Shown here one piece after another: positions 1-35,925 of a stretch of 64,000 bases of DNA. The position numbers were made by a program, and so were the translations under genes. The stretch lies in the NCBI GenBank assembly GCA_043807585.1, contig JAZDFV010000013.1, forward strand, positions 2,039 through 66,038, written 5' to 3'. The notes beneath the pieces are model-generated. The model did not search any database, was not told where the DNA came from, and saw nothing but the letters and a program-made list of their open reading frames with translations. The first letter of the stretch is position 1, and each line of letters opens with the position of its first letter. The stretch is from Candidatus Jorgensenbacteria bacterium (GTDB taxonomy: Bacteria; Patescibacteriota; Minisyncoccia; UBA6257; GWB1-50-10).

Positions 1-24
1 TGTCAAAATCGTTCATAATTATTT

Positions 25-1059
25 ATGAGAATTTATAGAGATATTTTTGAGCAGATCATATCGCCCGAAAATCTTTTCTCGGCGTGGGACGAGTTCAGAA
101 AAGGGAAGCAAAACAAACCTGACGTACTCCGGTTTGAATGGAATCTTGAGCAGAATATTTTTCAACTCCATCGGGAGCTGGAAAACAAAACGTATCGCCA
201 CGATTCCTACAAGAGTTTCTATATACATGACCCGAAACAGCGGCATATTCACAAGGCCTCGGTGCGGGACCGGGTTCTCCATCACGCTATTTTTTCCGTT
301 ATAAGTCCGATTTTTGAAGAAACGTTCATACCGACCTCGTTTTCGTGCCGCGTCGGATACGGCACCCACAAAGGCGTTGATGCTTTGAGAAAAATGGCGA
401 GGGAAACAAGTAAAAACGGGATGTGTCCCTGTTTCATTTTGAAATGCGACGTCAGGAAGTTCTTTGACTCCGTAAATCACGAAATTCTGCTTTCCATTTT
501 GAAAAAAAGGATCAAAGATGATGATGCAATGTGGCTTTTGGAATCCGTGGTGAGAAGTTATGAGAGCGTGCCGGGGAAGGGAATCCCGATAGGAAATCTG
601 ACTTCGCAGATTTTCGCCAATATCTACATGAACGAATTTGACCGATTTATGAAACATAGGTTGAGGGTGGGTCATTACATTCGTTACACCGACGATTTCT
701 CCTTGGTTTCCCAAAATTGCGAAGCATTAAAAAAACTTCTGCCGCTCATTTCTGCATTCCTTGAAAATGAACTTACGCTCTTGCTACATCCTAATAAAAT
801 CATAGTTCGTAAATTATGTCAAGGTGTAGATTTTCTCGGCTACGTTATTTTTCTGAAGTACCTGCGGTTGCGGACAAAAACAAAGCGGAGGATGTTTGCA
901 AAGATGCAGAGGCGAATTTCGGAATACCAGTCCGGCCATATCGGCAGGCCTGTTTTGGAGCAATCCCTGCAATCGTATTTAGGCGTTTTGTCTCACGCGA
1001 ACGCATACGCGCTTGGCGAGGATTTGAAGAATCAACTCATATTCCGTGGTAGAATATGA
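25..1059 (+). CDS. Diversity-generating retroelement (DGR)-type reverse transcriptase, apparently full length
   Basis: 344-aa ORF with RT motifs 1-7. DGR hallmarks: N-terminal block 'FYIHDPKQRHIHKASVRDRVLHHAI', motif 4 'GIPIGNLTSQIFANIYMNEFD' (SQ signature instead of group II intron QGxxxSP), catalytic 'YTDD'. No maturase or endonuclease domain. Visibly AT-richer than neighbours. Stop overlaps the mreC start. Confidence 0.8.
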   Translation: MRIYRDIFEQIISPENLFSAWDEFRKGKQNKPDVLRFEWNLEQNIFQLHRELENKTYRHDSYKSFYIHDPKQRHIHKASVRDRVLHHAIFSVISPIFEETFIPTSFSCRVGYGTHKGVDALRKMARETSKNGMCPCFILKCDVRKFFDSVNHEILLSILKKRIKDDDAMWLLESVVRSYESVPGKGIPIGNLTSQIFANIYMNEFDRFMKHRLRVGHYIRYTDDFSLVSQNCEALKKLLPLISAFLENELTLLLHPNKIIVRKLCQGVDFLGYVIFLKYLRLRTKTKRRMFAKMQRRISEYQSGHIGRPVLEQSLQSYLGVLSHANAYALGEDLKNQLIFRGRI

Positions 1060-1772
1060 GACGAACGATAGACATGAGATCCCTCAGGGCAATCCTCGGC
1101 ATCGGCGCGGGCGTGCTCGTCATTGTTTTCCTCGTGGTGTTTCGTATCGAAATCACGAGTGCGCTCGGCCGTTTCCGCGCCGCACTCTCCGCGGCGGCGG
1201 ATCCGGCGTTTTCCTATCAAGCATTCCAAGGCCTGGAGCGGGAAAATGAAGAACTCAAAGCGCGTCTTGTAGAGCGTGCCCTGCCCGGGGACAACCCTCA
1301 CTCTCTTACCTCCCTCACAGCGCGGGTGTATTCGCGCTACCCGGTGGGAAGCGGGGGGCGTCTCACGGTGAATGCGGGGAGCGAGGATGGCATCCGTGAG
1401 GGAATGCCGGTGTTGCTTTCCCCCGGAACGCTCCTCGGGAAAGTGGTGGGGGTGCGCCGCACCCAGAGCGAGGTGCTGACCATCTGGAGCCCTGATTGGA
1501 AGAGCGCGGTTTCAGTCGCCTCGGGAGGGCCCAAGGCGCTCCTCCAAGGCGGGAGTGAGCCGCGCCTCGAGCTTGTGTCAAAGGATGCCCATCTCACGGA
1601 CGGCGCGGGCGCGGTGAACATCTCTCCCGAATTTCCCTTAGATCTCCTCGTAGGTACCGTGGGAGCGCCGCTCGCCGATTCCCCAAACAATCCCTGGTCT
1701 TCCTATCGGCTCGTCCCGCCCGTGGGAGAGGCCGAACTTGACTCGGTGCTCGTGGTCTTAAATTTCCCTTAA
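1056..1772 (+). CDS. mreC: Rod shape-determining protein MreC
   Basis: N-terminal TM segment, coiled-coil 'ENEELKARL', conserved 'GMPVL...GKVVGV' beta-barrel region. Positioned upstream of mreD and mrdA. Confidence 0.8.
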   Translation: MRRTIDMRSLRAILGIGAGVLVIVFLVVFRIEITSALGRFRAALSAAADPAFSYQAFQGLERENEELKARLVERALPGDNPHSLTSLTARVYSRYPVGSGGRLTVNAGSEDGIREGMPVLLSPGTLLGKVVGVRRTQSEVLTIWSPDWKSAVSVASGGPKALLQGGSEPRLELVSKDAHLTDGAGAVNISPEFPLDLLVGTVGAPLADSPNNPWSSYRLVPPVGEAELDSVLVVLNFP

Positions 1773-1776
1773 CGAG

Positions 1777-2241
1777 ATGCGATATGCCTCCGGCATGGTG
1801 TGGATTGTGGGGACGCTTGCCTTTCTTATGCTCCTGCAGTTCGGGCGCCTGTTCGCACTGTGGGGTATAGCACCCGATCTCCCGCTCGTGTTTTTCTTCG
1901 CGCTCGGGGTTTCCCGGGCGCCGTTTCCCGTCTTCGGCGCGGCGCTCGTAGGTTTTATCGCACTCTCGTTCCTCTGGGCGCCTTTTTGGATCGTGCAGGC
2001 GGCGGCGGTGGGGGTGGTGGCCGTTCTGGGGTACGTCGCCGTCCGCCATCTTACGGGCAACCGCTGGGTTGATATGGCGCTCCTCGCGGGTGCGGGTACG
2101 CTGGTGTACGCGCTCGGAGGATACGTTCTGGGGTTTGCACCGCTCTCGTGGGGCGTCCTCGGCGAAGCGGTATATAATACTCTGGCTGGATTTCTCGCGC
2201 TCGCACTTTTGCCGCGGCGCGGGATATTCTCTTCGGCATGA
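1777..2241 (+). CDS. mreD: Putative MreD-like membrane protein
   Basis: 154-aa polytopic hydrophobic protein between mreC and mrdA. Call is by position and hydrophobicity only. Confidence 0.45.
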   Translation: MRYASGMVWIVGTLAFLMLLQFGRLFALWGIAPDLPLVFFFALGVSRAPFPVFGAALVGFIALSFLWAPFWIVQAAAVGVVAVLGYVAVRHLTGNRWVDMALLAGAGTLVYALGGYVLGFAPLSWGVLGEAVYNTLAGFLALALLPRRGIFSSA

Positions 2242-4148
2242 CAAAGCACGAACCGCCGCTGGGATTTGAGGAAATGCTCTCCGACGGGGCGCGGGAGGAG
2301 GATCTCATGGAAGTGCCGCTCGCCCCGCTCGCTTTCCGCGCGTTTTTCGGGCTCGTGCTTGCGTTCCTGTCTCTCACGCTCGTGCAGCTGGGATACCTTG
2401 GCATCGCTCGTCACGGTTTTTACTCTGCGCGCGCACACACGAACATGTCCGATGAAAAGGTGGTGCTCGCGCCCCGCGGCATCATCTATGACCGTCAGGG
2501 AGAATCGCTGGTCAAGAATCTCCCCTCGGTGAACGCATTCCTCACCCCGCGGTTCCTTCCGGGGGCGCCGGAGGAGCGCCTGCGGACGTTTGAAACCATC
2601 GCCGCCGCGCTCGGCATTGACCGCACTGCGCTCGCGGAGCAGCTTGCGGCGCGGGACTGGGGCGTGAGCGAACGCGTCCCACTAAAGGAGGACCTCTCCC
2701 ACGACGAGGTGGTAGAACTCTCTTCCCGTTCCATTCCCGGGCTCACGCTGGAGCCGGCTTTCAAGCGGGTGCACCGGACTCCCTATGCGTTTGCGCACCT
2801 GATCGGCTACACCGGCCTTGCGGACGAGAGGGATCTGAAAGATCGGGCGCAGCTCACGGTGGAGGATCAGGTGGGGCGGGCGGGGCTCGAGGCGTTCTAT
2901 GACGGCGACCTTCGCGGAACGGACGGGCGCGAGATAACGTACCGCGATGCGCTGGGAAACATTGAAGAAGGCCAGAAGCTTTCAGCACCGCGCCCCGGGT
3001 CGGATCTTCACACCTCAATTGATGGTGACCTCCAAGAGTTTTTCTACCAGCGCCTCGCCGAGGCCCTCCGCGACTTGGGGCGCACCGTGGGAGTGGGGAT
3101 CGCCATGGATCCGCGGAACGGGGAAATTCTTGCGTTAGTTGGTCTCCCTGCGTTTGATTCCACCCGCGTGGCGGAGGCATTGAACGCTCCCGGTGAACCG
3201 CTCTTCAACCGCGCCGTTGCCGGGCTGTACAATCCCGGTTCCACCATCAAACCGCTCGTGGCAACCGCGGCGCTCACGGAGGGGGTGATCGATCCCGAGA
3301 AACAGATCTTTTCAAAAGGATACATTGAGATTCCAAATCCATACCACCCGGAATTGCCCAGCCGTTTTGTGGACTGGAAGCCGAACGGGTGGGTGAACGT
3401 CGTGGACGCGCTCGCGAAATCCAGTAACATCTATTTCTACGAAGTGGGAGGGGGATTTGAGGGTCAGCAAGGTTTGGGAATCGAACGTCTTAAGCGGTGG
3501 TGGGAAAAGTTCAAGCTTGGGAGCGTGACTGGCATTGACCTTGTTGGGGAGGCGAAAGGATTCCTTCCGGACCCCGCCTGGAAGGAGCGGGAGACGGGGG
3601 AGCCGTGGCGCATCGGTGACACCTACAACGTGTCGATCGGCCAGGGAGACCTCCTCGTTACCCCCTTGGAACTCCTGAACTACGTTAGTGCCATTGCGAA
3701 CGGCGGGGTTCTTTACCAGCCGCGGGTAGTGCGCGCCATCGTTGACGAGCGCGGCACAGTGGTTGACGAGCGCGGCACAGTGGTTGAACACGGTGCGGTG
3801 ACGGAAGAGAGAGCCACCTCCACAATACTTGCCGATCTGCGTGGAGAGATCGGGAACTCGGTTCGCTACGTTCAGGAAGGGATGCGCGAGGTGGTGCGTG
3901 CTTCCTACGGCACCGCGCACTCCTTAGCCACGCTCCCGTTCCCGGTGGCGGCGAAGACCGGCACCGCCCAGATCGAGGAGAACACCAAAATGAACGCCTT
4001 CTTCGTGGGGTATGCCCCCGCTGACCGCCCGCGCCTCGCGCTCCTCATCCTCGTAGAAAATGCGGTGCAGGGAAGTTTGAACACGGTGCCGGTGGCACGG
4101 GACGTTTTGCTGTGGTACTATGAGAATCGGTTAAAGAATAAAATATGA
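2238..4148 (+). CDS. mrdA: Penicillin-binding protein 2 (peptidoglycan D,D-transpeptidase)
   Basis: N-terminal TM anchor; transpeptidase motifs SxxK 'GSTIKP', SxN 'KSSNIY', KTG 'KTGTAQ'. Operon context mreCD-mrdA. Confidence 0.85.
   Translation: MTKHEPPLGFEEMLSDGAREEDLMEVPLAPLAFRAFFGLVLAFLSLTLVQLGYLGIARHGFYSARAHTNMSDEKVVLAPRGIIYDRQGESLVKNLPSVNAFLTPRFLPGAPEERLRTFETIAAALGIDRTALAEQLAARDWGVSERVPLKEDLSHDEVVELSSRSIPGLTLEPAFKRVHRTPYAFAHLIGYTGLADERDLKDRAQLTVEDQVGRAGLEAFYDGDLRGTDGREITYRDALGNIEEGQKLSAPRPGSDLHTSIDGDLQEFFYQRLAEALRDLGRTVGVGIAMDPRNGEILALVGLPAFDSTRVAEALNAPGEPLFNRAVAGLYNPGSTIKPLVATAALTEGVIDPEKQIFSKGYIEIPNPYHPELPSRFVDWKPNGWVNVVDALAKSSNIYFYEVGGGFEGQQGLGIERLKRWWEKFKLGSVTGIDLVGEAKGFLPDPAWKERETGEPWRIGDTYNVSIGQGDLLVTPLELLNYVSAIANGGVLYQPRVVRAIVDERGTVVDERGTVVEHGAVTEERATSTILADLRGEIGNSVRYVQEGMREVVRASYGTAHSLATLPFPVAAKTGTAQIEENTKMNAFFVGYAPADRPRLALLILVENAVQGSLNTVPVARDVLLWYYENRLKNKI
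3741..3782 (+). repeat. Perfect 21-nt in-frame tandem duplication (2 copies plus a partial third) inside mrdA
   Basis: gttgacgagcgcggcacagtg x2 encodes 'VDERGTVVDERGTV'. Confidence 0.8.
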
Positions 4149-4259
4149 CCAGTCGCCTATGAAAGGACTTGAGTTTTGGTTTTGCTTTCTTAATAGTCGG
4201 CGCCCTGCTCTTTATTATTGGGCGGGTTCCACTTGCGGAGGCGGCAGTTCAGCAGTTAG
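4078..4259 (+). repeat. Repeat R1: native mrdA 3' end (last ~22 codons plus stop), spacer, and 5' ~110 nt of the downstream secreted-protein gene
   Basis: ~181/182 nt, ~95% identical to R2 at 7531-7711. Confidence 0.85.
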
Positions 4260-6475
4260 TTTTCGATACGCTTGATAGTATGGAGGCAGTTCATCCCGCG
4301 CAGGGTATAGGCACTGGTTTGTCCGGTAGTTTTGGTTCTCTCACCATAAAATTTTTGGGTACTCGAACCTATTGTTCGTATGCGCCGGTGATTTTGGGAT
4401 ATCCTTCCGAAGCTTCTTGGCTTGCCGGTTACAATAATTATGTGAGTTATCGCAAGGCCAATCTCGTGCTTCCTTGTGGCAGTAGTGTTGGTGAAGCTAC
4501 GCATACTATTTCTGCCGGTGATTTTCCGGGCGGCCCGGTGGTTTTCAATCCATCGCTTTATTACGTGGTACATCTAGAAGGAGGCACCAGCGGTACTATT
4601 TTTGGAAAGGTACGAGGGTCGGGGATTGATGTTCTTGCTGGCGGCCAGTTTTGTAGATATATGTCTTGGCAAGACCCCGCGCCTTCCGGCTGTTCGCTGA
4701 CTGTGAAGGATATGTATTTCGATCTTCAAGGGGTTTCCCCGGCGCCTCCGGCTGGCGGCATTTCGATAAGTAATTTAGGGCAATTCAAATCTGATGCGAC
4801 GAGCACGATTCCGGAGGGCAGTGCAACGACTGAGGATACGATTGTGTTTGGCGCAACGCTTCAGTCGTCATCTACAGATCAATTGCAGCTGCAGGTGGAA
4901 GTACAACCGTCGAGTATGCCTTTCACGAACCAGCCTACTTCGACGAGTACACTAGTAAACTCCGGGGAGTTTGCCACCACAGCGGCAAATCTTTCTGACG
5001 GCGAATACCATTGGCAGGCAAGAGCAGCGGATAGCCAAAACAACGTTTCAGAGTGGCAGGAGTTTGGAACGCCAAGCAATACTGATTTCGTAATTCACCA
5101 AGTGCCGTTGTATACGCAGGTGATATCTGATTTTCCATCGCAGGCAGATACCAAAAATTGGGCCCGTGAAACTTACGCCGAAGGCAGAGGAAATATTGGG
5201 CCCGAAGATCAACGTTGCGGTCTTACTATAAGAGATTGCGGTTGCGCTATCACATCCGCGGTTATGGTTTTGCGTTATTATGACATTACAACGGGTACAG
5301 ATAATCAAGACGTAAACCCGCTTACTTTCAATAACTGGCTTAATGCTAATAATGGTTACGTCGGCAATGGCAATCTTGATTGGGTGAAGGTCGTGGAGTA
5401 CTCCAGAGATTCTCTTTCCGGCATTGCCCGTTTGCATTACGACGGAAGGCGTGACATCGGAGACAATTTCGGAACAACGTTTAACGATCTTGTTAACCTG
5501 ACGGATTCTTATGTAAATTCAGCGAGACCGGTTATTGCTTGGATTCCAAGCTTTGGCCATTTCCTTGTTGCCAACGAAAAACTCGCAAATAATTACGCAG
5601 TTAGAGACCCCGCTTGGTACAACACGAGAACCCTCGATTCGGAGACAACAAGCGCATTGCAGAGAATCCGTGATTACAACAATCAGTTTGAAGGAGTGCG
5701 TCTATACAGTCATTTCAGTGGCCCCGTGGACGGCATCTCTTTGAATCTTGCCTCGCCCGCGGAACTTCTCGTAATAGACCCGCAGGGGAGGCGATTAGGT
5801 AGAGACCCAATTTCCAATATTGTCTATAGCGAAATTCTAAACAGCTCTTACGGCAGAGATGGCATCAGTAATGCCGACACCGAAGTTCCCGACTCGCCGC
5901 ACATAGTCAAAAACATCTGGGTTCCAGAACCGATAACCGGCTCTTACGAAGTTAAAGTTATAGGCACCGCGAGTGGCACGTATTCATTGAACAGCTTGAT
6001 TTACGACGCAAGTAGCACGCCCCATTTAGCGACATTTAGTGGCATTACAGCCCCAAATAGCGAAACTGATTATACTTTAAATTATTCCACCAGTACGCCT
6101 CAAGAGATTTCAGTAAAAGAAGTTTATAAATTTCTTGGTTTTCTTCCTCCGGTTAAATCCGACGGAAGCGGAGTTTGCAGACTTGGCCGGACTTTGCCGG
6201 TAAAGTTCCAGCTGAAAAACGCCCTCGGCCAATTTGTAACGAATACAACGGCAACGCTTACGGTAGCAAAAATACAGGATGGCATTGTCGGAACTGAAGA
6301 AGTAGCATTTTCAAGCGGGAATTCCAATGCAGGAAATACTTTCAGATACGATTTCCAAAACGATCAATATATCTTTAATCTGAACACAGGCACAATGACC
6401 GCGGGTACTTGGCAACTCAAGCTAAAACTGGATGACGGTAAGAGTTATACGGTTTTGATCTCATTGAGAAATTAG
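4169..6475 (+). CDS. Secreted multidomain protein with papain-fold (peptidase C39-like) Cys/His/Asp domain and beta-sandwich modules (cassette gene A1)
   Basis: Signal-peptide-like N-terminus 'LIVGALLFIIGRVPLAEA' shared with 7612..9765. Shared middle domain 'VKDMYFDLQGVSPAPP...HWQARA.DSQNNVSEWQEFGTP'. 'RDCGCAITSAVMVLRYY...GHFLVANE...VRDPAWYN' suggests a C39-like cysteine peptidase. C-terminal 'KSYTVLISLRN' is shared with orphan module 11436..11639. Starts at a TTG because a 1-nt insertion relative to copy 2 breaks the ATG frame. Confidence 0.55.
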   Translation: MSFGFAFLIVGALLFIIGRVPLAEAAVQQLVFDTLDSMEAVHPAQGIGTGLSGSFGSLTIKFLGTRTYCSYAPVILGYPSEASWLAGYNNYVSYRKANLVLPCGSSVGEATHTISAGDFPGGPVVFNPSLYYVVHLEGGTSGTIFGKVRGSGIDVLAGGQFCRYMSWQDPAPSGCSLTVKDMYFDLQGVSPAPPAGGISISNLGQFKSDATSTIPEGSATTEDTIVFGATLQSSSTDQLQLQVEVQPSSMPFTNQPTSTSTLVNSGEFATTAANLSDGEYHWQARAADSQNNVSEWQEFGTPSNTDFVIHQVPLYTQVISDFPSQADTKNWARETYAEGRGNIGPEDQRCGLTIRDCGCAITSAVMVLRYYDITTGTDNQDVNPLTFNNWLNANNGYVGNGNLDWVKVVEYSRDSLSGIARLHYDGRRDIGDNFGTTFNDLVNLTDSYVNSARPVIAWIPSFGHFLVANEKLANNYAVRDPAWYNTRTLDSETTSALQRIRDYNNQFEGVRLYSHFSGPVDGISLNLASPAELLVIDPQGRRLGRDPISNIVYSEILNSSYGRDGISNADTEVPDSPHIVKNIWVPEPITGSYEVKVIGTASGTYSLNSLIYDASSTPHLATFSGITAPNSETDYTLNYSTSTPQEISVKEVYKFLGFLPPVKSDGSGVCRLGRTLPVKFQLKNALGQFVTNTTATLTVAKIQDGIVGTEEVAFSSGNSNAGNTFRYDFQNDQYIFNLNTGTMTAGTWQLKLKLDDGKSYTVLISLRN

Positions 6476-6477
6476 AA

Positions 6478-7521
6478 ATGATGCCCCTTTTCCAAAAGAA
6501 GTTTTTTTTTCTTCTTATATTACTTATTGTTGCAAGCGGTTTATTCCTTTTCTACATCTACTATTCAAAACCGCAACCTCCCGCCGTCACTTCTCAACCT
6601 CCTGTAAATGCAACCACCAGCCAGCAAGTCGCAGAAATGAGGGTTGGTCCATGTCTTGCTGATGATGAATATGCTGAGTATAGAGCCGAGAAAAGAGAAG
6701 GCGTTCCTAGTGTTGCTGCGATATTAGTAAAAGAGAAAGATTCTAATAATGAAGTTTTTGAATTTGGTATTGAGAATGTGAAAGTGGGCCACTATCATGC
6801 TTACGAAATTCATAAGTGTAATGTTTATATTGTGAGGGAATTTAATTATGATTATCGAAAAGGGAAAGCCTTACCAAATTACAAAATAGAAATATGGCAA
6901 TATCAGTATGACGGTAAGGGAAAGGAATTAGTAGAAATCGATGATTTTCGGGTTGACTCTGTAGAACGTTATATTGCTTTCCTTAAGGGCTATCTCGGCT
7001 CTTCTGATTACGCGATTGTGATTAAAGACCTCAAAACCCTAAATGACGTTTTTACCTTGCCAATGTCAGAGATTGAAAAACGAAATCTGGAAATCGTGGG
7101 CGATATGCAGTTTGAGAATTGGTCTAGCGATGGACGTTATCTTTGGGCTAATACTGCTTATGGCGCCAACACGCTTGGTTTCATTCGCATTGATACCAAA
7201 GATCGGAGCGTAAAACTTTTGCCTGCGCCAAAGGATGTTTTGGGCGGCGACGCCCTCAATCTTGAGAAGGGGTTAATCACCGTTCATCCGGGGAATGTTT
7301 GGTTCGGCGTCTCGGAGCTTGATGAACAGGAAAAAGCGAAGCGCCGCGCTCAAGGAATCGGCACCGAGCTTTATATATACAATCTCTTTACCGGAAAGCA
7401 GCTCTTCGTAGCAAGCACCACCGAACCTCTTTATTATTTCAAACCCAAGTGGCCCTCTGACACCGAACTGGAGTATTATTTTCCTTCGGGAGAGCGGGAG
7501 GTTTATAGGGTCGTAGAGTGA
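6478..7521 (+). CDS. Membrane-anchored hypothetical protein (cassette family B, copy 1)
   Basis: N-terminal TM anchor. Homologous to 11650..12735 through 'GPCLADDE', 'YAIVIKDL', 'GANTLGFIRID', 'LGGDALNLEKGLITVHPGNVWFG', 'QEKAKRRAQ'. Confidence 0.5.
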   Translation: MMPLFQKKFFFLLILLIVASGLFLFYIYYSKPQPPAVTSQPPVNATTSQQVAEMRVGPCLADDEYAEYRAEKREGVPSVAAILVKEKDSNNEVFEFGIENVKVGHYHAYEIHKCNVYIVREFNYDYRKGKALPNYKIEIWQYQYDGKGKELVEIDDFRVDSVERYIAFLKGYLGSSDYAIVIKDLKTLNDVFTLPMSEIEKRNLEIVGDMQFENWSSDGRYLWANTAYGANTLGFIRIDTKDRSVKLLPAPKDVLGGDALNLEKGLITVHPGNVWFGVSELDEQEKAKRRAQGIGTELYIYNLFTGKQLFVASTTEPLYYFKPKWPSDTELEYYFPSGEREVYRVVE

Positions 7522-7530
7522 ACCAGAGCC

Positions 7531-7711
7531 TGAACACGGTGCCGGTGGCGCGGGACGTGTTTCTGTGGTACTATGAGAATCGGTTAAAGAATAAAATGTG
7601 ACCAGTCGCCTATGAAAGGACTTGAGTTTTGGTTTTGCTTTCTTATAGTCGGCGCCCTGCTCTTTATTATTGGGCGGGTTCCACTTGCGGAGGCGGCAGT
7701 TCAGCAGTTAG
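7531..7711 (+). repeat. Repeat R2: displaced copy of the mrdA 3' end (with its own stop codon) plus start of cassette gene A2
   Basis: Encodes '...LNTVPVARDVFLWYYENRLKNKM*' versus native '...LNTVPVARDVLLWYYENRLKNKI*'. Confidence 0.85.
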
Positions 7712-9765
7712 ACGACTCCGTAACTTCTGTAACCTCATATTCTAATCCCGTACAGACCATAGGTGGCATTACTGGTACGCTCTCGTCATTGACTATTCAC
7801 TTCGCCTCACAAGGCAGTTTAATTATGGTGAAAATGATTGTGAGAGAATATGACACAATGCCCGAGGGTGCGCCTAACGGGTATTCACAGCAGTGGTATC
7901 CTATTTCCGATAATTATATGCGGGATGGGACCTCGGCAACGTTCACTGCTTCGGAATACTCAACGCCGGTAGTTTTCAATCCTGATAAATACTATGCTTT
8001 TATGTTTTATCAAATGGATAGATACCTTCAAGGTTCCGGTTCAGATGTTCTCCAAGGCAAGTTTTATTCAACTGGTACGACGGGTAATACTACGGAAGAT
8101 CCGAATGTGAAGGATATGTATTTCGATCTTCAAGGGGTTTCCCCGGCGCCTCCGGTCGGCGGCATTTCGATAAGTAACTTAGGGCAATTCAAATCTGACG
8201 CGACGAGCACGATTCCGGAAGGCGGCGCGACGACCGAAGGTATGATTGTGTTCGGCGCAACGCTTCAATCATCATCTACAGATCCACTGCAGTTGCAGGT
8301 AGAAGTACAACCGTCGAGTACACCTTTCACGAACCAGCCCACGGCGACAAGCACATTTATTGACCCGGGGGGTTTTGCTACTACGACAGTTACGAATCTG
8401 CCTAACGGCCAGTATCACTGGCAGGCAAGGGCGGTAGACAGCCAAAACAACGTTTCGGAGTGGCAGGAGTTTGGAACGCCAGGAAATATAGATTTTGAAG
8501 TAAGCATGCCTTTATCTACCAAGGCAGTGAATCTTGCAAAACTCGTTATTAACGGGCCATATTTAGGAGACGGCGACACTTTCGGTGGCAAGGGGTGGGA
8601 TCCTGTGCGGGCTGAATATGTAACTTCAAGCCTGATTCTAAGTGGATATCAGTATTGGAATAACAAATTGAGGATCATTGCTTTTGGGGCGGGTCTTGAC
8701 TGTTCTGGATTAGTGCAATGGGCATTTAACCGTTCCTTTGATCCCAAAAAGAGTCTGCTGAAGAATGTGGTTCGTTACGATGGGGCGGATGGGCAGTATA
8801 AAAATAATTCTGAAAACATAGCCGAGGCGGATCTGCGGCCAGCCGATTTATTGTTTCTCGATAAAGATGGTAATGGTGGAAAGGACCATGTTGCGATGTA
8901 TGTGGGAGATAATGGAACATTCGATGTTGTAGAAGCACATTCGCCAGCACGAGGTATCATTACCTCTAACAAAGCTGAGTTTAAGACAAGGGCTGGATTC
9001 ATTGGAAACCAAGGTTTTCGACGAGTAATTGCCAGTCCATCAATAGGAGGTCAAGTTAAAGTTAGCTCTCCAATTGATTTAATTGTGACCGACCCTGATG
9101 GATTTACTATTACACCAACGACGGTGATTCAAACCGACGAGGAGTATCTCCGAGAAGTACCGGGTGAACTTTACTACACGGAAAATGTGCTGGGGATTGA
9201 TGGTCGTCCGGAGGACATAGTTTACTGGCCCGCGCAGAAGATTGGTAATTATAGCATTAAAGTTCTCCCCGAAGCTGACGCTATGCCGACAGAAACTTAC
9301 TCAATGGAATTTACTGTTGGCGAGCAGACGATTGTTTTGGCAGACGATGTTCATTTAGATCAGATACCGTTGGAAGGTTATGGAGTTAACATCGCGAGTA
9401 GTGGTGCAATCAGCACTTTTGTGCCAGTAGCTATTGATATCAAGCCGAACAGTTTTCCTAATAGTATCAATTTAGGTTCCAAAGGCACTACCCCAGTGGC
9501 CATTCTCGGCTCTGCGACACTTGATGTTAAACAAATTGACCCGAACACAATTAAACTCGCAAATGCCCCAATCAAATTAAAGAACAACGGAAAGTTGATG
9601 ACAAGTTATGAGGACGTAAACGGAGATGGCTTTACCGACATGGTCGTTCATATTATTACCGCTGTGCTTCAATTAGCTCCCTCGGATGTGAAAGCGGAGC
9701 TGAGCGGTTTCCTCTTGGATAGAAGAGAAATAAAAGGGTCGGATTCGGTCAAAATTGTGCCATAA
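7612..9765 (+). CDS. Secreted multidomain protein with NlpC/P60 cysteine peptidase domain and beta-sandwich modules (cassette gene A2)
   Basis: Same N-terminus and middle domain as A1. 'DCSGLVQWAF...DHVAMYVG' matches NlpC/P60 Cys/His. PPC-like module 'IDLIVTDPDGFTITPTT...YSIKV'. C-terminal 'IKPNSFPNSINLGSKGTTPVAILGS' module. Confidence 0.6.
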   Translation: MKGLEFWFCFLIVGALLFIIGRVPLAEAAVQQLDDSVTSVTSYSNPVQTIGGITGTLSSLTIHFASQGSLIMVKMIVREYDTMPEGAPNGYSQQWYPISDNYMRDGTSATFTASEYSTPVVFNPDKYYAFMFYQMDRYLQGSGSDVLQGKFYSTGTTGNTTEDPNVKDMYFDLQGVSPAPPVGGISISNLGQFKSDATSTIPEGGATTEGMIVFGATLQSSSTDPLQLQVEVQPSSTPFTNQPTATSTFIDPGGFATTTVTNLPNGQYHWQARAVDSQNNVSEWQEFGTPGNIDFEVSMPLSTKAVNLAKLVINGPYLGDGDTFGGKGWDPVRAEYVTSSLILSGYQYWNNKLRIIAFGAGLDCSGLVQWAFNRSFDPKKSLLKNVVRYDGADGQYKNNSENIAEADLRPADLLFLDKDGNGGKDHVAMYVGDNGTFDVVEAHSPARGIITSNKAEFKTRAGFIGNQGFRRVIASPSIGGQVKVSSPIDLIVTDPDGFTITPTTVIQTDEEYLREVPGELYYTENVLGIDGRPEDIVYWPAQKIGNYSIKVLPEADAMPTETYSMEFTVGEQTIVLADDVHLDQIPLEGYGVNIASSGAISTFVPVAIDIKPNSFPNSINLGSKGTTPVAILGSATLDVKQIDPNTIKLANAPIKLKNNGKLMTSYEDVNGDGFTDMVVHIITAVLQLAPSDVKAELSGFLLDRREIKGSDSVKIVP

Positions 9766-9773
9766 AATCGTTT

Positions 9774-10361
9774 ATGCCCGTCCTTAGTTCAATCCATAAA
9801 AAACTACTCTTCCTGTTTGTTGTTATTGCCCTTGGTCTTATTTCAGTGTGGGTATTTATTAAATACCAACCCGCTCAGAAAGAACTACCGCCGGCACTGA
9901 TTTTAACTTCAACTCCCCAATCGTCGGCGGTTTCAGCCCCAATCTCTACCACCTCAACAAGCATCACGCAAGAAACCAAAACCTATCGCAATGAAAAGTT
10001 TGGTTTTGAATTTCAGTATCCGGGAAACTGGATTGTAAAAGAGAATACTTTTGGAAGTTATTACAGTAAATTTAATCTTGTGGTAAATCCCGAATTAGTG
10101 CGGAGTTCTAATTTTACATTTTCAATCAATATTGTATTGCCAGAGTTTCCTGAACGTAGTTTTCGCAACATAGAAAAAACAACTCCTGAAGTGATTGTTG
10201 ATGGAGTTGTGGGTACCAAATATCAGTATGAGTTTGAAGGTCAGCAGGAAACAGCGATTATATTACCACTCGGAGAATATAGGATGATTTTAGGAAGAGA
10301 TAGTGAACAATATTTGAATGAATTTAATCAAATTATTGCTTCATTCAAGTTTTTGAGTTGA
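9774..10361 (+). CDS. Membrane-anchored hypothetical protein (module shared with C-terminus of 10429..11439)
   Basis: N-terminal TM anchor. 'KTYRNEKFGFEFQYPGNW...YQYEFEGQQETAIILPLGEYRMILG...FNQIIASFKFL' is paralogous to the C-terminal half of 10429..11439. Confidence 0.45.
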   Translation: MPVLSSIHKKLLFLFVVIALGLISVWVFIKYQPAQKELPPALILTSTPQSSAVSAPISTTSTSITQETKTYRNEKFGFEFQYPGNWIVKENTFGSYYSKFNLVVNPELVRSSNFTFSINIVLPEFPERSFRNIEKTTPEVIVDGVVGTKYQYEFEGQQETAIILPLGEYRMILGRDSEQYLNEFNQIIASFKFLS

Positions 10362-10428
10362 TGATGAGTTACGAGAACGTTAACGAAGTTTGATGGAACT
10401 ATAATCAAGGGATCTGATTCTGTTCGGA

Positions 10429-11439
10429 TTGTCCCTTAAAGTTGAATCTATAAACATAGTGAACAAAAAGTTATTAATTACATTAATCGGCATTATCATG
10501 CTTGGTGCTAGCGTTGCGATTGCGGGGTGGTGGATGTTTAGTGGGCGACCTGATCGGAATCAATCAATGCCTTCTGTCCCGCCCACTGCTTCCTCTACTC
10601 CTTCTGCTGGGAGGAATAATATTCTGGGAGTGGGGATGATAACATCTAGTCAAGGCCCTATTGACCTCATCGTGACCGATCCCGATGGATACACTATCAC
10701 GCCAACAACGACCATTCCTTCTGATTTTGAATATCTTCGCCAAATCCCCGGAGTTCTCTATTATTCGGAAATGGAAAAAGGGGCAGATGGCAACCCAATT
10801 GACAGGGTTTATTCCTACACTGCTAAAATCGGTGATTATCTTATAAAAGTGTTACTGGCTTCTAACGCTACTCCGACTTCAACTTATAACCTCAATTTTT
10901 CAGTTGGGGATCAGTCCATAACGCTTGCTCAAAATACACCCGTAAGTCAAATACCGCAGCAAGGATACGGCGTGCGTGTGGCGCCGAATGGTTCGATTTC
11001 GCCTCTACCTTTGGTTCTAACTATTCCGTCTGTTCAAACAGGAAAAGCAGAGGGCATGAAAACATATATAAATACTGAGTTTGGTTTTGAGTTCCAATAC
11101 CCAGCAAATTGGGAGATACGAGAAAACGTTTTTGGGAGTCCGGCAAGTAAATTTAACTTGAATATTGTCCCGAATACCGAACGTTATCTTCCCGATCCGG
11201 TACTGATTAATGTTGTGACTTCTAGTTTTGGTGACCGCGCTTTTCAAGATTTGGAGAATATTACCTCCAAGATAACGGTTGGCGGTATTTCTGGCAAACG
11301 TTACGATTATGAGTTTGAGGGCATGCAAAGAACCTCAATCCTTTTACCGTTCGGCGAGCTTAGGATTATTTTGGGATCTGAGCAACGGTATGAAGATGTT
11401 TTTAATCAAGTTATTTCCTCATTCAAGTTCTTGAAATGA
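10429..11439 (+). CDS. Membrane-anchored hypothetical protein with PPC-like beta-sandwich module
   Basis: N-terminal TM anchor. 'IDLIVTDPDGYTITPTT...YLIKV' is paralogous to A2 residues ~480-590. Confidence 0.45.
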   Translation: MSLKVESINIVNKKLLITLIGIIMLGASVAIAGWWMFSGRPDRNQSMPSVPPTASSTPSAGRNNILGVGMITSSQGPIDLIVTDPDGYTITPTTTIPSDFEYLRQIPGVLYYSEMEKGADGNPIDRVYSYTAKIGDYLIKVLLASNATPTSTYNLNFSVGDQSITLAQNTPVSQIPQQGYGVRVAPNGSISPLPLVLTIPSVQTGKAEGMKTYINTEFGFEFQYPANWEIRENVFGSPASKFNLNIVPNTERYLPDPVLINVVTSSFGDRAFQDLENITSKITVGGISGKRYDYEFEGMQRTSILLPFGELRIILGSEQRYEDVFNQVISSFKFLK

Positions 11440-11639
11440 ATATCAAACCCGGCAGTTTTCCAAATAGCATCAATCTTAATTCAAAAGGCACCACTCCTGT
11501 CGCGATTTTCGGTTCCGCGACGTTCGATGTTAGACAAATTGACTCTACTACGATTAAACTTGCTAACGCCAGCGTAAAATTAAAAGGCAACGGCCAGCCA
11601 ATGAAGAGTTATACGGTTTTGATTTCTTTAAGGAACTAG
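11436..11639 (+). pseudogene. Orphan C-terminal module fragment (67 aa) of the cassette gene A family
   Basis: 'IKPGSFPNSINLNSKGTTPVAIFGSATFDVRQID...KSYTVLISLRN' joins the C-terminal module of A2 to the C-terminal tail of A1. Lacks an N-terminal gene body. Confidence 0.4.
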
Positions 11640-11649
11640 ACATGGCACC

Positions 11650-12735
11650 ATGACCTCATTATTTCGAAGGAGGGTTTTTTTGTTGTTTGTACTGCTCATT
11701 ATCGTGAGTGCGATATTTTGGTTTTACTTACGCTATTTCCGATTTCACACCGCTGACACTTCCCAGGTTCCAGGCAATGCCACCACGACGGAAGAAATTA
11801 ATAAAGTAAAACACGGCCCATGCCTTGCGGATGACGAAATGGTTGAATACGACCGTATAAGCCAACACCTACTTATTACACAACCGAAAGACATGTCGCC
11901 AGTTATTTATGTACGCAATAAAACTACAGGTGAGACGACGGTTAGCTTTCGACTTGATGACGTTATGGTTTTTGGACATCCGATGGAGATACACAATTGT
12001 GGTGTTTACGTTGTAAGAGCTTTCAATTATGACCCGCAAAAAGCTAAGCAAGAAATAGGTTTTCGTGATGAGTTGTGGAAATACGATTATCGGGGAGAGA
12101 AAAAAATGTTGATATTGCTTTCCGAGAAGCCGAAAGAATTCATTGACTATTACGGCCTTGAATTTCGTGTTGCCCCCACAGAAACCTACGTTTCTTTTAT
12201 ACGCGGGTACTTGGGTAAGGCCGACTATGCCATCGTCATTAAAGATTTAAACGCGCTCAGAGATATTTTGACTCTGACAATTGCAGAAATCGAAAAGCGC
12301 AATCCGGATTTAGTGCAGGATATCGCATTCGACGACTGGACCAACGACGGTCGCTACTTCTGGGTCCACACGCATTATGGAGCAAACACTTTGGGTTTCA
12401 TTCGCATAGATATGGAAACAAAAACCTTTGATTTATTTCCTGCGCCGAAAGATGTTCTGGGCGGCGATGCTCTCAATCTTGAAAAGGGATTAATCACGGT
12501 TCATCCAGGCAATGTCTGGTTCGGCATTGCCCAAGTGGAGGAACAGGAAAAAGCCAAGCGGAGAGCACAGAGCATCGGCACCGAACTGTACGTTGAAAAC
12601 CTTTTTACCCACGAGCGCCAGTTTGTGGCGAGCACCGCAGAACCGCTCCACTACTTCAAGCCGAAGTGGATTTCCGACACTGAACTGGAGTATTCCCTGC
12701 CGTCAGGGGAAACGAAGATGTATACAATTCCTTGA
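11650..12735 (+). CDS. Membrane-anchored hypothetical protein (cassette family B, copy 2)
   Basis: Paralog of 6478..7521. Confidence 0.5.
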   Translation: MTSLFRRRVFLLFVLLIIVSAIFWFYLRYFRFHTADTSQVPGNATTTEEINKVKHGPCLADDEMVEYDRISQHLLITQPKDMSPVIYVRNKTTGETTVSFRLDDVMVFGHPMEIHNCGVYVVRAFNYDPQKAKQEIGFRDELWKYDYRGEKKMLILLSEKPKEFIDYYGLEFRVAPTETYVSFIRGYLGKADYAIVIKDLNALRDILTLTIAEIEKRNPDLVQDIAFDDWTNDGRYFWVHTHYGANTLGFIRIDMETKTFDLFPAPKDVLGGDALNLEKGLITVHPGNVWFGIAQVEEQEKAKRRAQSIGTELYVENLFTHERQFVASTAEPLHYFKPKWISDTELEYSLPSGETKMYTIP

Positions 12736-12775: not shown

Positions 12776-12847
12776 AACACCGTTCCGGTGGCGAACGACG
12801 TGCTCCTGTGGTACTATGAGCATCGTATAAAAACTGGTAACGGGTAA
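12776..12847 (+). repeat. Repeat R3: diverged displaced mrdA 3'-end remnant with own stop
   Basis: Encodes 'NTVPVANDVLLWYYEHRIKTGNG*', same orientation as mrdA. Confidence 0.7.
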
Positions 12848-13396: not shown

Positions 13397-14842
13397 ATGC
13401 TCCGCGACCTTATAGCCGAACGCAGGCGAAAGCTTGCCACCTACCGCGAGGCGGCTGACCCATACCCGGCTTCGGTGGCGCGCACGGTGACGCTGGGGGA
13501 CCTCACTGCTCGTTTCGGGACATTCGCGCGCGGGAAACGACGGGTGTCGGTGGTAGGCCGAGTGGTTTCATGGCGGGATCAGGGCAAGATCCTTTTCGCC
13601 GGTCTCACCGATGCTACCGGGAAACTCCAGGTGGTGATGACTGCGGAAGCGACCGCTCCCTTCACCGTCTTGAAGCACAGCGTCGATATCGGGGATTTTT
13701 TGGAGGTGCGGGGGCGGGCGTTCACCACCAAGCGCGGGGAGAAAAGCATCCTCGCCGAGCGGGCGCGCCTTCTCTCGAAAAGTGTGCGCCCCGTCCCGAG
13801 CGAATGGTACGGACTCTCGGACATTGAGACCCGGCTCCGGAAACGTTATTTGGACCTCCTCGTAAACCCCGAGGTGCGCGAGCTTTTCGTGAAGAAAGCG
13901 GAGTTCTGGCGGACGATGCGGGGAGTGCTCGTGAAAGACGGATTCCTCGAGGTGGAAACGGGGGCGCTGGAGCCGGTCCCGGGGGGCGCGGATGCGGAAC
14001 CGTTCGTGACCCACATGAACGCCCTTGACCGGGATTTCTATCTGCGCATCTCGCTCGAGCTCCCATTGAAGCGGCTCCTCGTGGGTGGGTATGAGAAAGT
14101 GTTCGAGATCGGGCGCGTGTTCCGCAACGAAGGGATGGATCGCGACCACCTCCAGGACTACACCCAGATGGAGTGCTACGCGGCGTACTGGGACCACCGG
14201 GATATGATGAAATTCGTGGAGCGGCTTTTCCGCGCGGTCGTGAAGCGCACCGTCGGGTCTCTCTCCACGAAGCACGGGGGTAAGGCGGTGGATTGGGGAA
14301 AGGAATGGCCGGTGGTGGATTACTTCGCGGTTTTCAGGAAGGCGACGGGGATTGATCTGGAGAACGCCACGCGCGACGCCCTCCGCCTTGAGGCGGAAAA
14401 GCGGAAACTGGCGCCGGAGCCGCGTGCAGGCCGCGGGCGTCTCATTGACATGATTTTCAAGAAAGCGGTTCGTCCCACGCTTGTGCAGCCCTCGTTCCTC
14501 ACGGGGCACCCGGTGGATATCTCGCCGCTCGCGAAGTCCGATCCGGAGCATCCGAAGAAGACACTTCGTTTCCAGGTAATGGCGGCAGGAATCGAGCTGG
14601 GGAACGGCTGGGCGGAGCTCAATGACCCCGAGGAGCAGCGGCGCCGGTTTGGCGAGCAGATGAAGCTCCGCGCCGCTGGCGACAAAGAGGCTCAGCGGTT
14701 GGACGAGGATTTCGTGGAAGCTTTGGAGTATGGTATGCCGCCCGCCGCCGGATTCGGGCTTTCAGAGCGCTTCTTTGCGGTCCTGATGGATAAACCCATC
14801 CGCGAAACGGTCATGTTCCCGCTTATGAAAGAGGAAAAATAG
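13397..14842 (+). CDS. lysS: Lysyl-tRNA synthetase, class II
   Basis: OB anticodon-binding N-terminus; class II motifs ('FRNEG', 'GIDR'-like) in the catalytic core. Confidence 0.9.
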   Translation: MLRDLIAERRRKLATYREAADPYPASVARTVTLGDLTARFGTFARGKRRVSVVGRVVSWRDQGKILFAGLTDATGKLQVVMTAEATAPFTVLKHSVDIGDFLEVRGRAFTTKRGEKSILAERARLLSKSVRPVPSEWYGLSDIETRLRKRYLDLLVNPEVRELFVKKAEFWRTMRGVLVKDGFLEVETGALEPVPGGADAEPFVTHMNALDRDFYLRISLELPLKRLLVGGYEKVFEIGRVFRNEGMDRDHLQDYTQMECYAAYWDHRDMMKFVERLFRAVVKRTVGSLSTKHGGKAVDWGKEWPVVDYFAVFRKATGIDLENATRDALRLEAEKRKLAPEPRAGRGRLIDMIFKKAVRPTLVQPSFLTGHPVDISPLAKSDPEHPKKTLRFQVMAAGIELGNGWAELNDPEEQRRRFGEQMKLRAAGDKEAQRLDEDFVEALEYGMPPAAGFGLSERFFAVLMDKPIRETVMFPLMKEEK

Positions 14843-14845
14843 AAC

Positions 14846-14890
14846 GATGACCATGACGATGACCATGACCATGACTATAACCATGACGAT
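14846..14890 (+). repeat. (ATGACN)n hexanucleotide tandem array in the lysS-serS spacer
   Basis: gatgaccatgacgatgaccatgaccatgactataaccatgacgat. Confidence 0.8.
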
Positions 14891-16153
14891 ATGCTAGATA
14901 TTAACCTCATCCGGGAACAGCCGGACAAAGTGAAGGAGGGCGTTCAAAAGAAGAACGTCGACCCTAAGATTGTGGACAAATTTTTGCGTTTGGACGAACA
15001 GTGGCGGGCGAAGACCGCCATCCTGGACCAGCTGAAAACGGAGCAAAACCTCCTCTCGAAGGAGCTTTCACATGGCCAGAGCGAGGAGGCGCTCTCCAAA
15101 GCGCAAGTGTTGAAAAATAGGATCACCGGCGTTGCCGCCGAACGCAGCGAGGTGGAGGGAAAGCGGGATGAAGTGCATCACCAACTACCCAATCTTCCCC
15201 TTGCCGACGTGCAGGTGGGAAAGGATGAATCCGGGAACAAGGTGCTCCGCGAGGTTGGGGAAAAACCGACGTTTGATTTTACGCCGAATGATTATCTTTC
15301 CCTCGGAGAGAAATTGGGCATCATCAATGTGAAGAAGGCCAGCGAGGTTTCAGGACCGCGGTTCGGCTACCTCATGGGAGACGCGGTGCTTTTGGAATTC
15401 GCGCTCGTTAAGCTCGCATTTGATACGCTCATTCCGGAAGGGTTCACGCCTGTGATCCCGCCGGTGCTCGTGAAGGAACGCACCATGCGGGCCATGGGTT
15501 ACCTGGACCGCCACGAGGACCGCGACGAGGCGTACTTCTTTGAGAAAGACGGGCTCTACCTCGTGGGGACCTCGGAGCAGTCGCTCGGGCCGCTCCACAT
15601 CGGTGACGTGCTGGAGGAGGCCGAATTGCCGAAGCGCTACGTCGGGTTTTCCAGTTGCTTCCGGCGCGAGGCGGGCTCCTACGGGAAGGACACAAAAGGC
15701 ATTCTCCGCGTCCATCAATTCGACAAGGTGGAAATGTTCAGTTTCTGCAGTCCCGAGCAGTCGCGCGCGGAACACGCCTTCCTCCTCTCAATGGAGGAGA
15801 AGCTCATGCAGGCGCTTGAGATCCCGTACCGCGTGGTGGAGATATGCACGGGGGATTTGGGGAACGTTGCTGCGGCAAAGTTTGACATTGAAGCGTGGTT
15901 CGCGGGCGAGGGCGTGTACCGCGAGACACACTCAACATCCAATTGCACCGATTTCCAGGCGCGCCGCCTCAACGTGAAGTATCGCCCGAAGGAGAAAGGC
16001 GCAAAGCCCCGGTACCTGCATACACTGAACGGCACGGCATTTTCTCAGCGGCCGCTCCTCGCCATCATTGAGAACAACCAGCTCGCTACGGGCACCATTA
16101 AGGTCCCGAAGGCGCTCCAGGGGTACGTGGGGAAGAGGGAGATAGGGGTATAA
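14891..16153 (+). CDS. serS: Seryl-tRNA synthetase
   Basis: N-terminal coiled-coil arm and class II catalytic core with motifs 2/3. Confidence 0.9.
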   Translation: MLDINLIREQPDKVKEGVQKKNVDPKIVDKFLRLDEQWRAKTAILDQLKTEQNLLSKELSHGQSEEALSKAQVLKNRITGVAAERSEVEGKRDEVHHQLPNLPLADVQVGKDESGNKVLREVGEKPTFDFTPNDYLSLGEKLGIINVKKASEVSGPRFGYLMGDAVLLEFALVKLAFDTLIPEGFTPVIPPVLVKERTMRAMGYLDRHEDRDEAYFFEKDGLYLVGTSEQSLGPLHIGDVLEEAELPKRYVGFSSCFRREAGSYGKDTKGILRVHQFDKVEMFSFCSPEQSRAEHAFLLSMEEKLMQALEIPYRVVEICTGDLGNVAAAKFDIEAWFAGEGVYRETHSTSNCTDFQARRLNVKYRPKEKGAKPRYLHTLNGTAFSQRPLLAIIENNQLATGTIKVPKALQGYVGKREIGV

Positions 16154-17354: not shown

Positions 17355-17417
17355 TCAGGGTTCCCTTGCCTCGTCGCAGATGAGCTTCGGTTCCTCGTCG
17401 CGCCAAGAGAGGCGCCC
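17355..17417 (-). repeat. Copy of the dnaE 3' end; 49 nt (17369-17417) identical to 55571-55619; encodes variant C-terminus '...EEPKLICDEAREP*'
   Basis: Direct orientation relative to dnaE (coding on minus strand) with its own in-frame stop. Confidence 0.75.
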
Positions 17418-17533
17418 CGAGACATTCCACTCGTATCTTGGTCTCCTGAAGCATGGGAACGCGCGCAGGTTGAAACGGCGCGCGCGGTATTTGTGTTATA
17501 ATTTTTCTGTACCAATGGATCCTCATTTTTAAA

Positions 17534-21833: not shown

Positions 21834-21999
21834 TTCTATACTTGAAAGGCTTGGTTGGAGCAATGGGAGCCGTAGGCGAACCAGTGCTCCATTCCAAACT
21901 TTCACCCCGTTAGATAAGAATATGAAAACCGTGGCAGTAAACAGACATAACGTATATCGATTACTATCGGTCGGCGATTCCCTGTCCTCGCTATCTAAC

Positions 22000-22067
22000 G
22001 GGGTGCTCGATTTTGTAGATAAATTTTCTTCTTCTACAGACTCGAAAATTTGTACAAAATCGGCATG
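22000..22067 (+). promoter_or_regulatory. Conserved ~68-nt leader / translation-start element (copy upstream of hrcA)
   Basis: ggggtgctcgattttgtagataaattttcttcttctacagactcgaaaatttgtacaaaatcggcATG. Same element precedes mraZ and ftsL. Preceded by a long IR (21903-21916 / 21992-22005). Confidence 0.6.
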
Positions 22068-30374: not shown

Positions 30375-30408
30375 GTTAACAAATTACACGGCCGTGTAAT
30401 TTGTTAAC
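30375..30408. repeat. Perfect 34-nt palindrome gttaacaaattacacGGCCgtgtaatttgttaac flanking PaaX-like gene 2
   Basis: Cognate copy at 30985-31015. Third solo copy at 39593-39625. Confidence 0.6.
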
Positions 30409-30448
30409 ATAAGGTGTCTTGTGGAATTTCAGCACCGTCGGGCCCGGT

Positions 30449-30937: not shown

Positions 30938-30984
30938 ATTTTTTGTCCCTTCGTTTTTTACTTCTTTACTTTCGTATAATATAT

Positions 30985-31015
30985 TAACATTTTACACGGC
31001 CGTGTGAAATGTTAA
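30985..31015. promoter_or_regulatory. Palindrome ttaacattttacacGGCCgtgtgaaatgttaa overlapping the putative promoter of PaaX-like gene 2; putative operator
   Basis: Lies ~50 nt upstream of the minus-strand start. -10-like 'tatatt/tattatac' overlaps on the coding strand. Confidence 0.55.
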
Positions 31016-31026
31016 TAGTGCACAAA

Positions 31027-34071: not shown

Positions 34072-34198
34072 TCCCGATTTTGCCCGATCCGCCAGCTGGC
34101 GGAGAGGTTACAAAATCGAGGACCCAGCACATAAGACATTTTGCTATGCATATTTCAAAGGAACAAAAACTGACCGTTTTTCGAAAGAACCTTATGTG

Positions 34199-34267
34199 CT
34201 GGGTGCTCAATTCCGTAGATAAATTTTTTTCGTCGACCGACTCAAAAATTTATACGTAATTGGCATG
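34199..34267 (+). promoter_or_regulatory. Conserved ~68-nt leader / translation-start element (copy upstream of mraZ)
   Basis: ctgggtgctcaattccgtagataaatttttttcgtcgaccgactcaaaaatttatacgtaattggcATG. Preceded by IR arms 34123-34135 / 34191-34203. Confidence 0.6.
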
Positions 34268-34696: not shown

Positions 34697-34846
34697 TGAC
34701 TATGACAATAACCATGACAATGAAGATAACCACGACTAATGACTATGACCAACTATGACTAATGACTATGACTAATGACCATGACTTATAACAAAGCGCA
34801 CGGTTCATAAGCAGGAGCTGTCATCGTCATACGTCATCGTCATTAG
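34696..34846. repeat. (ATGACN)n hexanucleotide array with complementary (GTCATC)n arm, forming a long spacer hairpin
   Basis: atgactatgacaataaccatgacaatga... then ...tgtcatcgtcatacgtcatcgtcat. Confidence 0.75.
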
Positions 34847-35788: not shown

Positions 35789-35925
35789 AGCCGTTGCGGC
35801 GAAGAAATTATGGCTTGCAAACCTTACCGAGCACATAAAAGTATGAAAACATCAACCAATCTTAAAGTAATTGCTTCTCGATTGAACGATTTGTACCAAG
35901 AAAGTCGCTTGGTTACTTTTATGTG

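Follow-up and report, generated by a model that had tools for sequence, protein, structure and literature searches.

Close to the left edge of a 64,000-nucleotide stretch of Candidatus Jorgensenbacteria DNA (the whole of which is called the window here), an open reading frame for a reverse transcriptase (RT) runs directly into mreC. An earlier note, made from the letters of the window and a list of its reading frames, took this frame for a complete RT of the diversity-generating retroelement (DGR) type and placed the template repeat (TR), the variable repeat (VR) and the accessory gene avd out of view. We ask to which class of RT the protein belongs and where the rest of its system lies. We consider it probable that positions 25..1059 of the plus strand encode the RT of a chromosomal DGR in Candidatus Jorgensenbacteria (CPR/Patescibacteria), that this element has the B3 layout typical of the ultra-small CPR bacteria, and that the window cuts it 16 nt into avd.

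An intact RT of the DGR class

The reading frame at 25..1059 (+) starts with an ATG and encodes an intact protein of 344 aa, which matched Pfam RVT_1 with an E value of 6e-21 and a score of 75.5 bits (cut-off 29.6). NCBI holds a protein 100% identical to it, MFH1162230.1, from a Candidatus Jorgensenbacteria MAG. The contig carrying MFH1162230.1 is 76,350 bp long, so that 12.35 kb of contig lie outside the window. In a sequence comparison with PDB entries, the top match of the window RT was 8ub7_A (E 7.7e-41, query residues 4-298). Over its aligned part, this chain shows 100% identity with brt of Bordetella phage BPP-1. Group II intron RTs were the next-best matches (best E 5.5e-21), and Drt, AbiK and other RTs were far weaker than these.

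The motifs point the same way. DGR RTs carry the signature [I/V/L]GxxxSQ as opposed to QGxxxSP (PMC7826257), and the window RT has it as IGNLTSQ at residues 189-195 (589..609, +), aligned to IGSLTSQ of bRT. This is the motif 4 that the earlier note had read as SQ in place of QGxxxSP. The two other features named there, an N-terminal block (FYIHDPKQRHIHKASVRDRVLHHA) and a catalytic YxDD box in the form YTDD (residues 221-224; 685..696, +), are likewise present. In an alignment of 16 RT sequences, the columns of FYIHDPKQRHIHKASVRDRVLHHA, IGNLTSQ and YTDD are invariant or nearly so; that of IGNLTSQ shows no variation, and those of Y221, T222, D223 and D224 are invariant. Over residues 1-336, which this alignment covers, the window RT retains all of the 100+ invariant columns. 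Residues R74 and I181 of bRT have been reported by Handa et al. to promote adenine mutagenesis (PMC7826257); in the 8ub7_A alignment they correspond to R73 and I189 of the window RT, and both are conserved.

The earlier note had also proposed a profile search that could reassign the protein to the retron or group II-like RTs, and its DGR assignment stands after that search. With NCBIfam profiles, the window RT scored below the cut-off for the group II RT TIGR04416 (149.8 bits, cut-off 300) and for the retron RT NF038233 (61.3 bits, cut-off 235). It also scored below the cut-offs for Drt3a (73 against 200), Drt2 (69 against 390), Drt4 (36 against 450) and AbiA (18.7 against 250). The PADLOC matches, RT_UG17 and Drt3a among them, were confined to the generic RT core. 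An Rfam scan of the window at gathering thresholds yielded two tRNAs only, with no group II intron, retron or other structured RNA family, indicating that the window holds no intron RNA. By these sequence comparisons, 25..1059 is confirmed as an intact RT of the DGR class.

The window opens inside a divergent avd gene

In contrast to the earlier statement that avd is not in view, its beginning lies at the very edge of the window. Positions 1..16 of the minus strand comprise the first five codons, plus one base, of a bAvd-like accessory gene, the reverse complement of 2-16 encoding MNDFD. A spacer of 8 nt (17..24) separates the divergent avd and RT start codons. The gap has the identical size in L163, a relative whose minus-strand gene upstream of the RT was called as bAvd, and window positions 1-24 match the stretch upstream of the RT in L163 at 23 of 24 bases.

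A protein search with the L163 Avd as query returned, at rank 17, a protein of 116 aa (P0137), which is present in NCBI only, under the name 'four helix bundle protein [Candidatus Jorgensenbacteria bacterium]', from a 76,350-bp contig. Its N-terminus, MNDFDIPIFKK, agrees with the MNDFD read from window positions 2-16 (-). It scored 63.5 bits against Pfam bAvd PF22296 (cut-off 40); against the structure 4dwl it gave no significant sequence match (E 0.3). The RT protein (P0001) and P0137 are both recorded from Candidatus Jorgensenbacteria contigs of 76,350 bp. Thus organism, contig size and N-terminal match, as opposed to the DNA itself, strongly suggest that P0137 is encoded on the RT's own contig. 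MNDFD and the match to P0137 together indicate that the window begins 16 nt into a divergent, full-length avd, and that the contig extends at least ~335 nt upstream. Only 16 nt of the gene fall inside the window, and the other ~335 nt lie upstream of it. The Avd partner that type B architectures require is therefore found here as a Pfam bAvd neighbour with 16 nt in the window.

DGR layout among the relatives of the RT

Genome and metagenome scans gave 160 loci with an RT identity of at most 69%, all of them in Patescibacteria-type MAGs or environmental contigs, and six further loci were added from exact-protein look-ups. The closest RT relatives, all from Patescibacteria MAGs, reach 72% identity. 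In the nearest of them, the RT is directly preceded by an opposite-strand gene that matches Pfam bAvd (PF22296). Relatives with an RT at least 54% identical and with sufficient upstream sequence number 74, and 71 of these possess a divergent avd ORF of 90 aa or more on the minus strand. The distance between the ATG of this ORF and that of the RT is -2 to +96 nt (median 3 nt), and the N-terminus of the relatives' Avd follows the pattern M[ND][DE][FL]DIPIFKK.

A script called TR/VR pairs by three criteria: a repeat length of 50 nt or more, no fewer than 5 mismatches between the copies, and 80% or more of these mismatches at A (or T) of one copy. The count was restricted to the 117 loci having at least 1300 nt upstream of the RT. 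An A-biased pair was present upstream of the RT in 100 of these 117 relatives; in the other 17 (12 of the 59 closer ones) no pair was detectable. The A-bearing copy, that is the TR, shares the strand of the RT in 99 of the 100. It has a median size of 124 nt, and its end lies a median of 403 nt from the RT start (range 350-1807). In 98 of the 100 the VR precedes the TR. The relatives have it at the 3' end of one or two target genes of ~260-310 aa further upstream. Locus L001 displays the full pattern: its two targets (7062-7943 and 8161-9069) end in VRs, the TR occupies 9454-9584, avd follows on the minus strand (9986..9639) and the RT starts at 10001.

Wu et al. 2018 (NAR 46:11) defined this order, TR-(avd)-RT, as architecture B3 (PMC5758913), which makes up 90% of their CPR DGR set and is almost never seen elsewhere (PMC5758913). 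As judged from their sequences, the layout of the relatives is B3, TR-(avd)-RT, typical of CPR bacteria. The earlier note had expected the rest of the system immediately upstream of the window. This expectation gains support both from P0137 with its avd gene and from the upstream TR/VR pairs in 100 of the 117 relatives.

One relative hints at mobility. In L165 (RT 70% identical), the DGR adjoins a serine recombinase and a type I restriction-modification system within 2565-12502, a stretch that also holds ParB-methylase genes and an HTH/M78-peptidase pair beside the DGR. This suggests that in that genome an integrative element carries the cassette. A phage association of the DGR was considered as well and rejected, IMG/VR having yielded no close relative.

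Search for TR, VR and target inside the window

Permissive self-BLAST of the 64 kb yielded no adenine-specific repeat pair, only a 43-nt simple-repeat match, in agreement with the earlier note, which had reported no such pair anywhere in the window. When 111 TRs of relatives were compared with the window by BLASTN, the matches were at chance level only, and 107 target proteins of relatives found no homologue in it by TBLASTN (best E 8.8e-4). This best match, at 38252-38389, runs antisense to a murF-like gene and was rejected as a target or VR because it is spurious. We also considered the paralogous secreted proteins at 4169-6475 and 7612-9765 as DGR targets. They differ by 59 mismatches over 393 nt, spread evenly across all four bases; since these differences are not adenine-biased, the two are not DGR targets.

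From the frequency of such parts in relatives, TR, VR and target are likely to lie upstream of this RT. On the spacing seen there, the TR is predicted ~380-500 nt before window position 1 and the VR ~0.4-0.6 kb beyond it. The pair as a whole would be expected outside the window, about 380-1000 nt upstream of its first base.

The junction with mreC

On its right-hand side the cassette is bounded by mreC (1056..1772, +; Pfam MreC PF04085, E 9.2e-17), the first gene of a GC-rich host block, mreC-mreD-pbp2. Next come a membrane ORF (1777-2241), placed where mreD would be, and a transpeptidase of the PBP2 type (2238-4148). The RT stop TGA at 1057-1059 overlaps the ATG at 1056-1058 that opens the MreC ORF. 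The earlier note had described this as an overlap of the RT stop with the mreC start. Its first part holds, as TGA and ATG do overlap in the sequence; for the second, an alternative in-frame ATG at 1074 leaves the mreC start unproven and the 4-nt overlap of the two genes plausible.

A 9-bp inverted repeat, CTCATATTC / GAATATGAG, at 1036..1060 (+) covers both the stop codon of the RT and the first of the candidate mreC ATGs. As RNA it folds with -10.5 kcal/mol and a z of -1.93, a weak signal given that 9 of 200 shuffles fold as well. Similarity of the RT to its relatives stops at about residue 336 (nt ~1033), which coincides with this repeat. The C-terminus reads ...LKNQLIFRGRI in the window and ...LLNRFW(V/I)S in the clade consensus, the last ~8 residues being different. 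As these last ~8 codons are unlike those of the relatives, the cassette boundary is probably at nt ~1033-1040.

Base composition changes at the same place. The earlier note had described the RT as AT-richer than mreC, and this is so: GC content is 43.6% in the RT and 61.6% in mreC-mreD-pbp2 (54.3% in the remainder of the window), with a step from ~44% to ~62% inside ~100 nt at 1050-1100. RT genes of this clade, however, differ from their flanks by a median of -4.9 GC points and by as much as -13.6 in GC-rich hosts. The RT-minus-flank comparison gives r = 0.79 against host GC, and the host of the window RT is unusually GC-rich for the clade. The AT-richness of the RT is thus largely a trait of its clade. 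Further low-GC islands lie at 4.1-12.9 kb and 32-34 kb of the window. Given both this clade-wide AT-richness and the islands, the composition step alone is no evidence of recent transfer or of a chimera. AT-richness as proof of either is weakened, as the whole RT clade is AT-richer than its hosts.

None of the ~160 relatives has its RT directly beside mreC. We also considered a recurrent linkage between DGRs and mre genes and rejected it: L012 has the order RT-aaRS-mreB-mreC-pbp2 and L041 the order RT-mraZ-rsmH-...-PBP, with RT-mreC adjacency in neither. A search of the window for mreB found none, which fits an mreB upstream of the cassette without showing it. In the most elaborate reading of this junction, insertion of the DGR cassette would have split the cell-elongation operon, with mreB on its upstream side and mreC-mreD-pbp2 on the other. 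Host sequence would have been used to rebuild the last ~8 RT codons, the RT stop would overlap the mreC start inside the 9-bp hairpin, and the RT would share a transcript, and coupled translation, with the elongasome genes. We hold this chain of events to be improbable. If it were true, expression of a hypermutation enzyme would be tied to cell-wall growth or, alternatively, expression of mreCD-pbp2 would depend on read-through from a retroelement. A cassette truly inside the mre operon would be a clean natural example of where a DGR lands and how it is expressed, which would be modest news and bring no new mechanism.

Other repeats and a low-GC island in the window

Several further features of the window were recorded. 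An element of ~65 nt occurs in four plus-strand copies (21992-22067, 34192-34267, 35919-35994 and 59889-59964), each stopping precisely at a gene's ATG. Judged by N-terminal sequence, the genes concerned resemble hrcA, mraZ, a small membrane ORF that occupies the place of ftsL, and nusB. The structure predicted with RNAalifold is a single long hairpin, in which 10 of the 25 pairs have compensatory double changes; at the base of its stem GGGTGC pairs with GCAT of the start-codon region. The hairpin matches no Rfam family and might act as a regulatory leader in cis or as a palindromic operator.

The 3' end of pbp2 (its last ~18-35 codons, ...NTVPVARDVLLWYYENRLKNKI) is found in triplicate at 4078-4192, 7531-7645 and 12776-12831, with 97% and 82% identity. 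These copies partition a low-GC (41-49%) island that occupies 4.15-12.85 kb between pbp2 and greA/lysS/serS, and they look like the product of tandem duplication or of repeated integration at that site. Paralogous secreted proteins are encoded in the island at 4169-6475, 7612-9765, 6478-7521, 11650-12735, 9774-10361 and 10429-11439. Its two large proteins have the signal peptide and a central region in common, but one has a Peptidase_C39-like domain and the other an NlpC/P60 domain; two paralogues of ~350 aa without a Pfam match and two proteins with weak PsbP_2 matches are present as well.

A near-perfect palindrome, TTAACAAATTACACGGCCGTGTAATTTGTTAA, occurs in three copies (30376-30418, 30984-31026 and 39594-39636), one of them ~225 nt downstream of tRNA-Glu (39298-39370), and could be a terminator or a protein-binding site. 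A 55-nt repeat with 98% identity is found at 17369-17423 and 55571-55625, 38 kb apart, with related weaker copies at 53033 and 53875; it probably marks paralogous genes. Short arrays of a ATGACCATGACA-like 12-nt unit stand at or just after gene ends (14825-14902, 34686-34739 and 60371-60448), and this repeat was the source of the sole 'A-biased' match in the TR/VR screen.

Discussion

The reading set out at the start has to be weighed against three others. The cassette could be an orphan or in decay, with RT and avd intact but with TR, VR and target lost or degraded, so that nothing is diversified. That 17 of the 117 relatives with enough upstream sequence (12 of the 59 closer ones) have no detectable A-biased pair makes a decayed or orphan cassette possible. 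The unusual site abutting mreC, the altered C-terminal tail of the RT and the 64 kb devoid of TR, VR or target homologue all agree with it. Yet the RT keeps every clade-invariant column, the Avd is full length and the system is complete in 85% of relatives; among the 17 negatives, moreover, some probably reflect failed detection or remote targets. We therefore regard loss of the remaining parts as unlikely.

The junction itself might be an artefact of assembly, in which a low-GC DGR fragment from a different CPR population became fused to a GC-rich contig of Jorgensenbacteria. The sharp GC step of ~44% to ~62% within ~100 nt at 1050-1100 could be read in this way, as could the adjacency of RT and mreC in 0 of ~160 relatives and the frequent ending of contigs in DGR regions (L161, for example, ends inside avd). 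Against this, RTs of the clade usually have a lower GC content than their flanks, the deficit reaching 13.6 GC points in GC-rich hosts, and the window has further low-GC islands (4.1-12.9 kb and 32-34 kb). The junction also bears no visible shared repeat, and the RT ORF closes cleanly on the mreC ATG. A chimeric contig is thus a very remote prospect. That the protein belongs to another RT class, as a group II intron maturase, a retron RT or a defence-associated Drt/UG RT, is effectively refuted at the level of sequence. The sub-threshold profile matches that would suggest it (TIGR04416 at 149.8 bits; PADLOC RT_UG17 and Drt3a) are joined by a 'retron-type' label that JGI gives to some relatives. 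The NCBIfam scores are nevertheless far under their cut-offs (149.8/300, 61/235 and 73/200), the motif is IGxxxSQ and not QGxxxSP, and no intron or retron RNA family reaches the Rfam gathering score. The neighbour is a bAvd gene, and relatives have TR/VR pairs.

For the DGR reading that we prefer, the proposed order of elements is one or more target genes with a 3' VR, then the TR, avd on the opposite strand and the RT. We infer that TR, VR and target are upstream in this genome and that the element is active. By analogy with BPP-1, a complex of RT and Avd would bind a plus-strand RNA of the TR and the sequence downstream of it, with cDNA synthesis presumably primed from the post-TR segment. 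If the BPP-1 scheme applies, this RNA would be reverse-transcribed with random misincorporation opposite template adenines. The cDNA would, again as in BPP-1, replace the VR at the 3' end of the target gene and so diversify a ligand-binding protein. Because avd is inverted between TR and RT, the post-TR RNA would be antisense to avd. With just 8 nt between the start codons of avd and the RT, the promoter of each gene should lie inside or beyond the other gene.

The window element is an ordinary further example of the well-described class of CPR DGRs and not a new type of system; belonging to that class, it is a known kind of system. It adds one CPR DGR to the thousands already known. For this locus, DGR RT and Avd can now replace the generic NCBI names 'reverse transcriptase domain-containing protein' and 'four helix bundle protein'. 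All that is unusual is the site against mreC-mreD-pbp2 in a GC-rich Jorgensenbacteria genome, together with the altered RT C-terminus.

Comparison with known systems

With a retron the window RT differs in its upstream neighbour, which is avd and not msr/msd. Group II intron RTs/maturases, which gave its second-best PDB and profile matches, have RT fingers and palm in common with it. The window RT, in contrast, lacks QGxxxSP, is accompanied by no intron RNA, falls below the family cut-off, and is shorter, without the maturase, DNA-binding and endonuclease extension.

The DGR of BPP-1 (mtd-avd-TR-brt) is the mechanistic prototype, and the window RT aligns with its RT over residues 4-298 (E 7.7e-41). 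Common to bRT and the window RT are [I/V/L]GxxxSQ, YxDD and equivalents of the adenine-mutagenesis residues R74/I181, and both loci have a partner of the Avd family (Pfam bAvd). In BPP-1, all genes read in one direction, arranged as avd-TR-brt, and 140 nt of non-coding spacer follow the TR; in the window locus, by contrast, avd is inverted and would lie between the inferred TR and the RT. The window element is chromosomal, whereas the BPP-1 DGR is phage-borne, and the window Avd is too diverged to match the structure 4dwl significantly in sequence (E 0.3).

The closest likeness is to the CPR B3 DGRs (Wu et al. 2018, PMC5758913; the CPR/DPANN DGR survey is its ref. 23). Unlike its other CPR B3 relatives, the window cassette abuts mreC-mreD-pbp2. 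Its RT departs from the clade in the last ~8 residues, and its host is unusually GC-rich. In those relatives the TR is on the RT strand ~400 nt upstream, and of this arrangement the window shows the (avd)-RT end only. With the CPR B3 DGRs the window locus shares the RT clade and a divergent avd that starts a few nt from the RT start codon.
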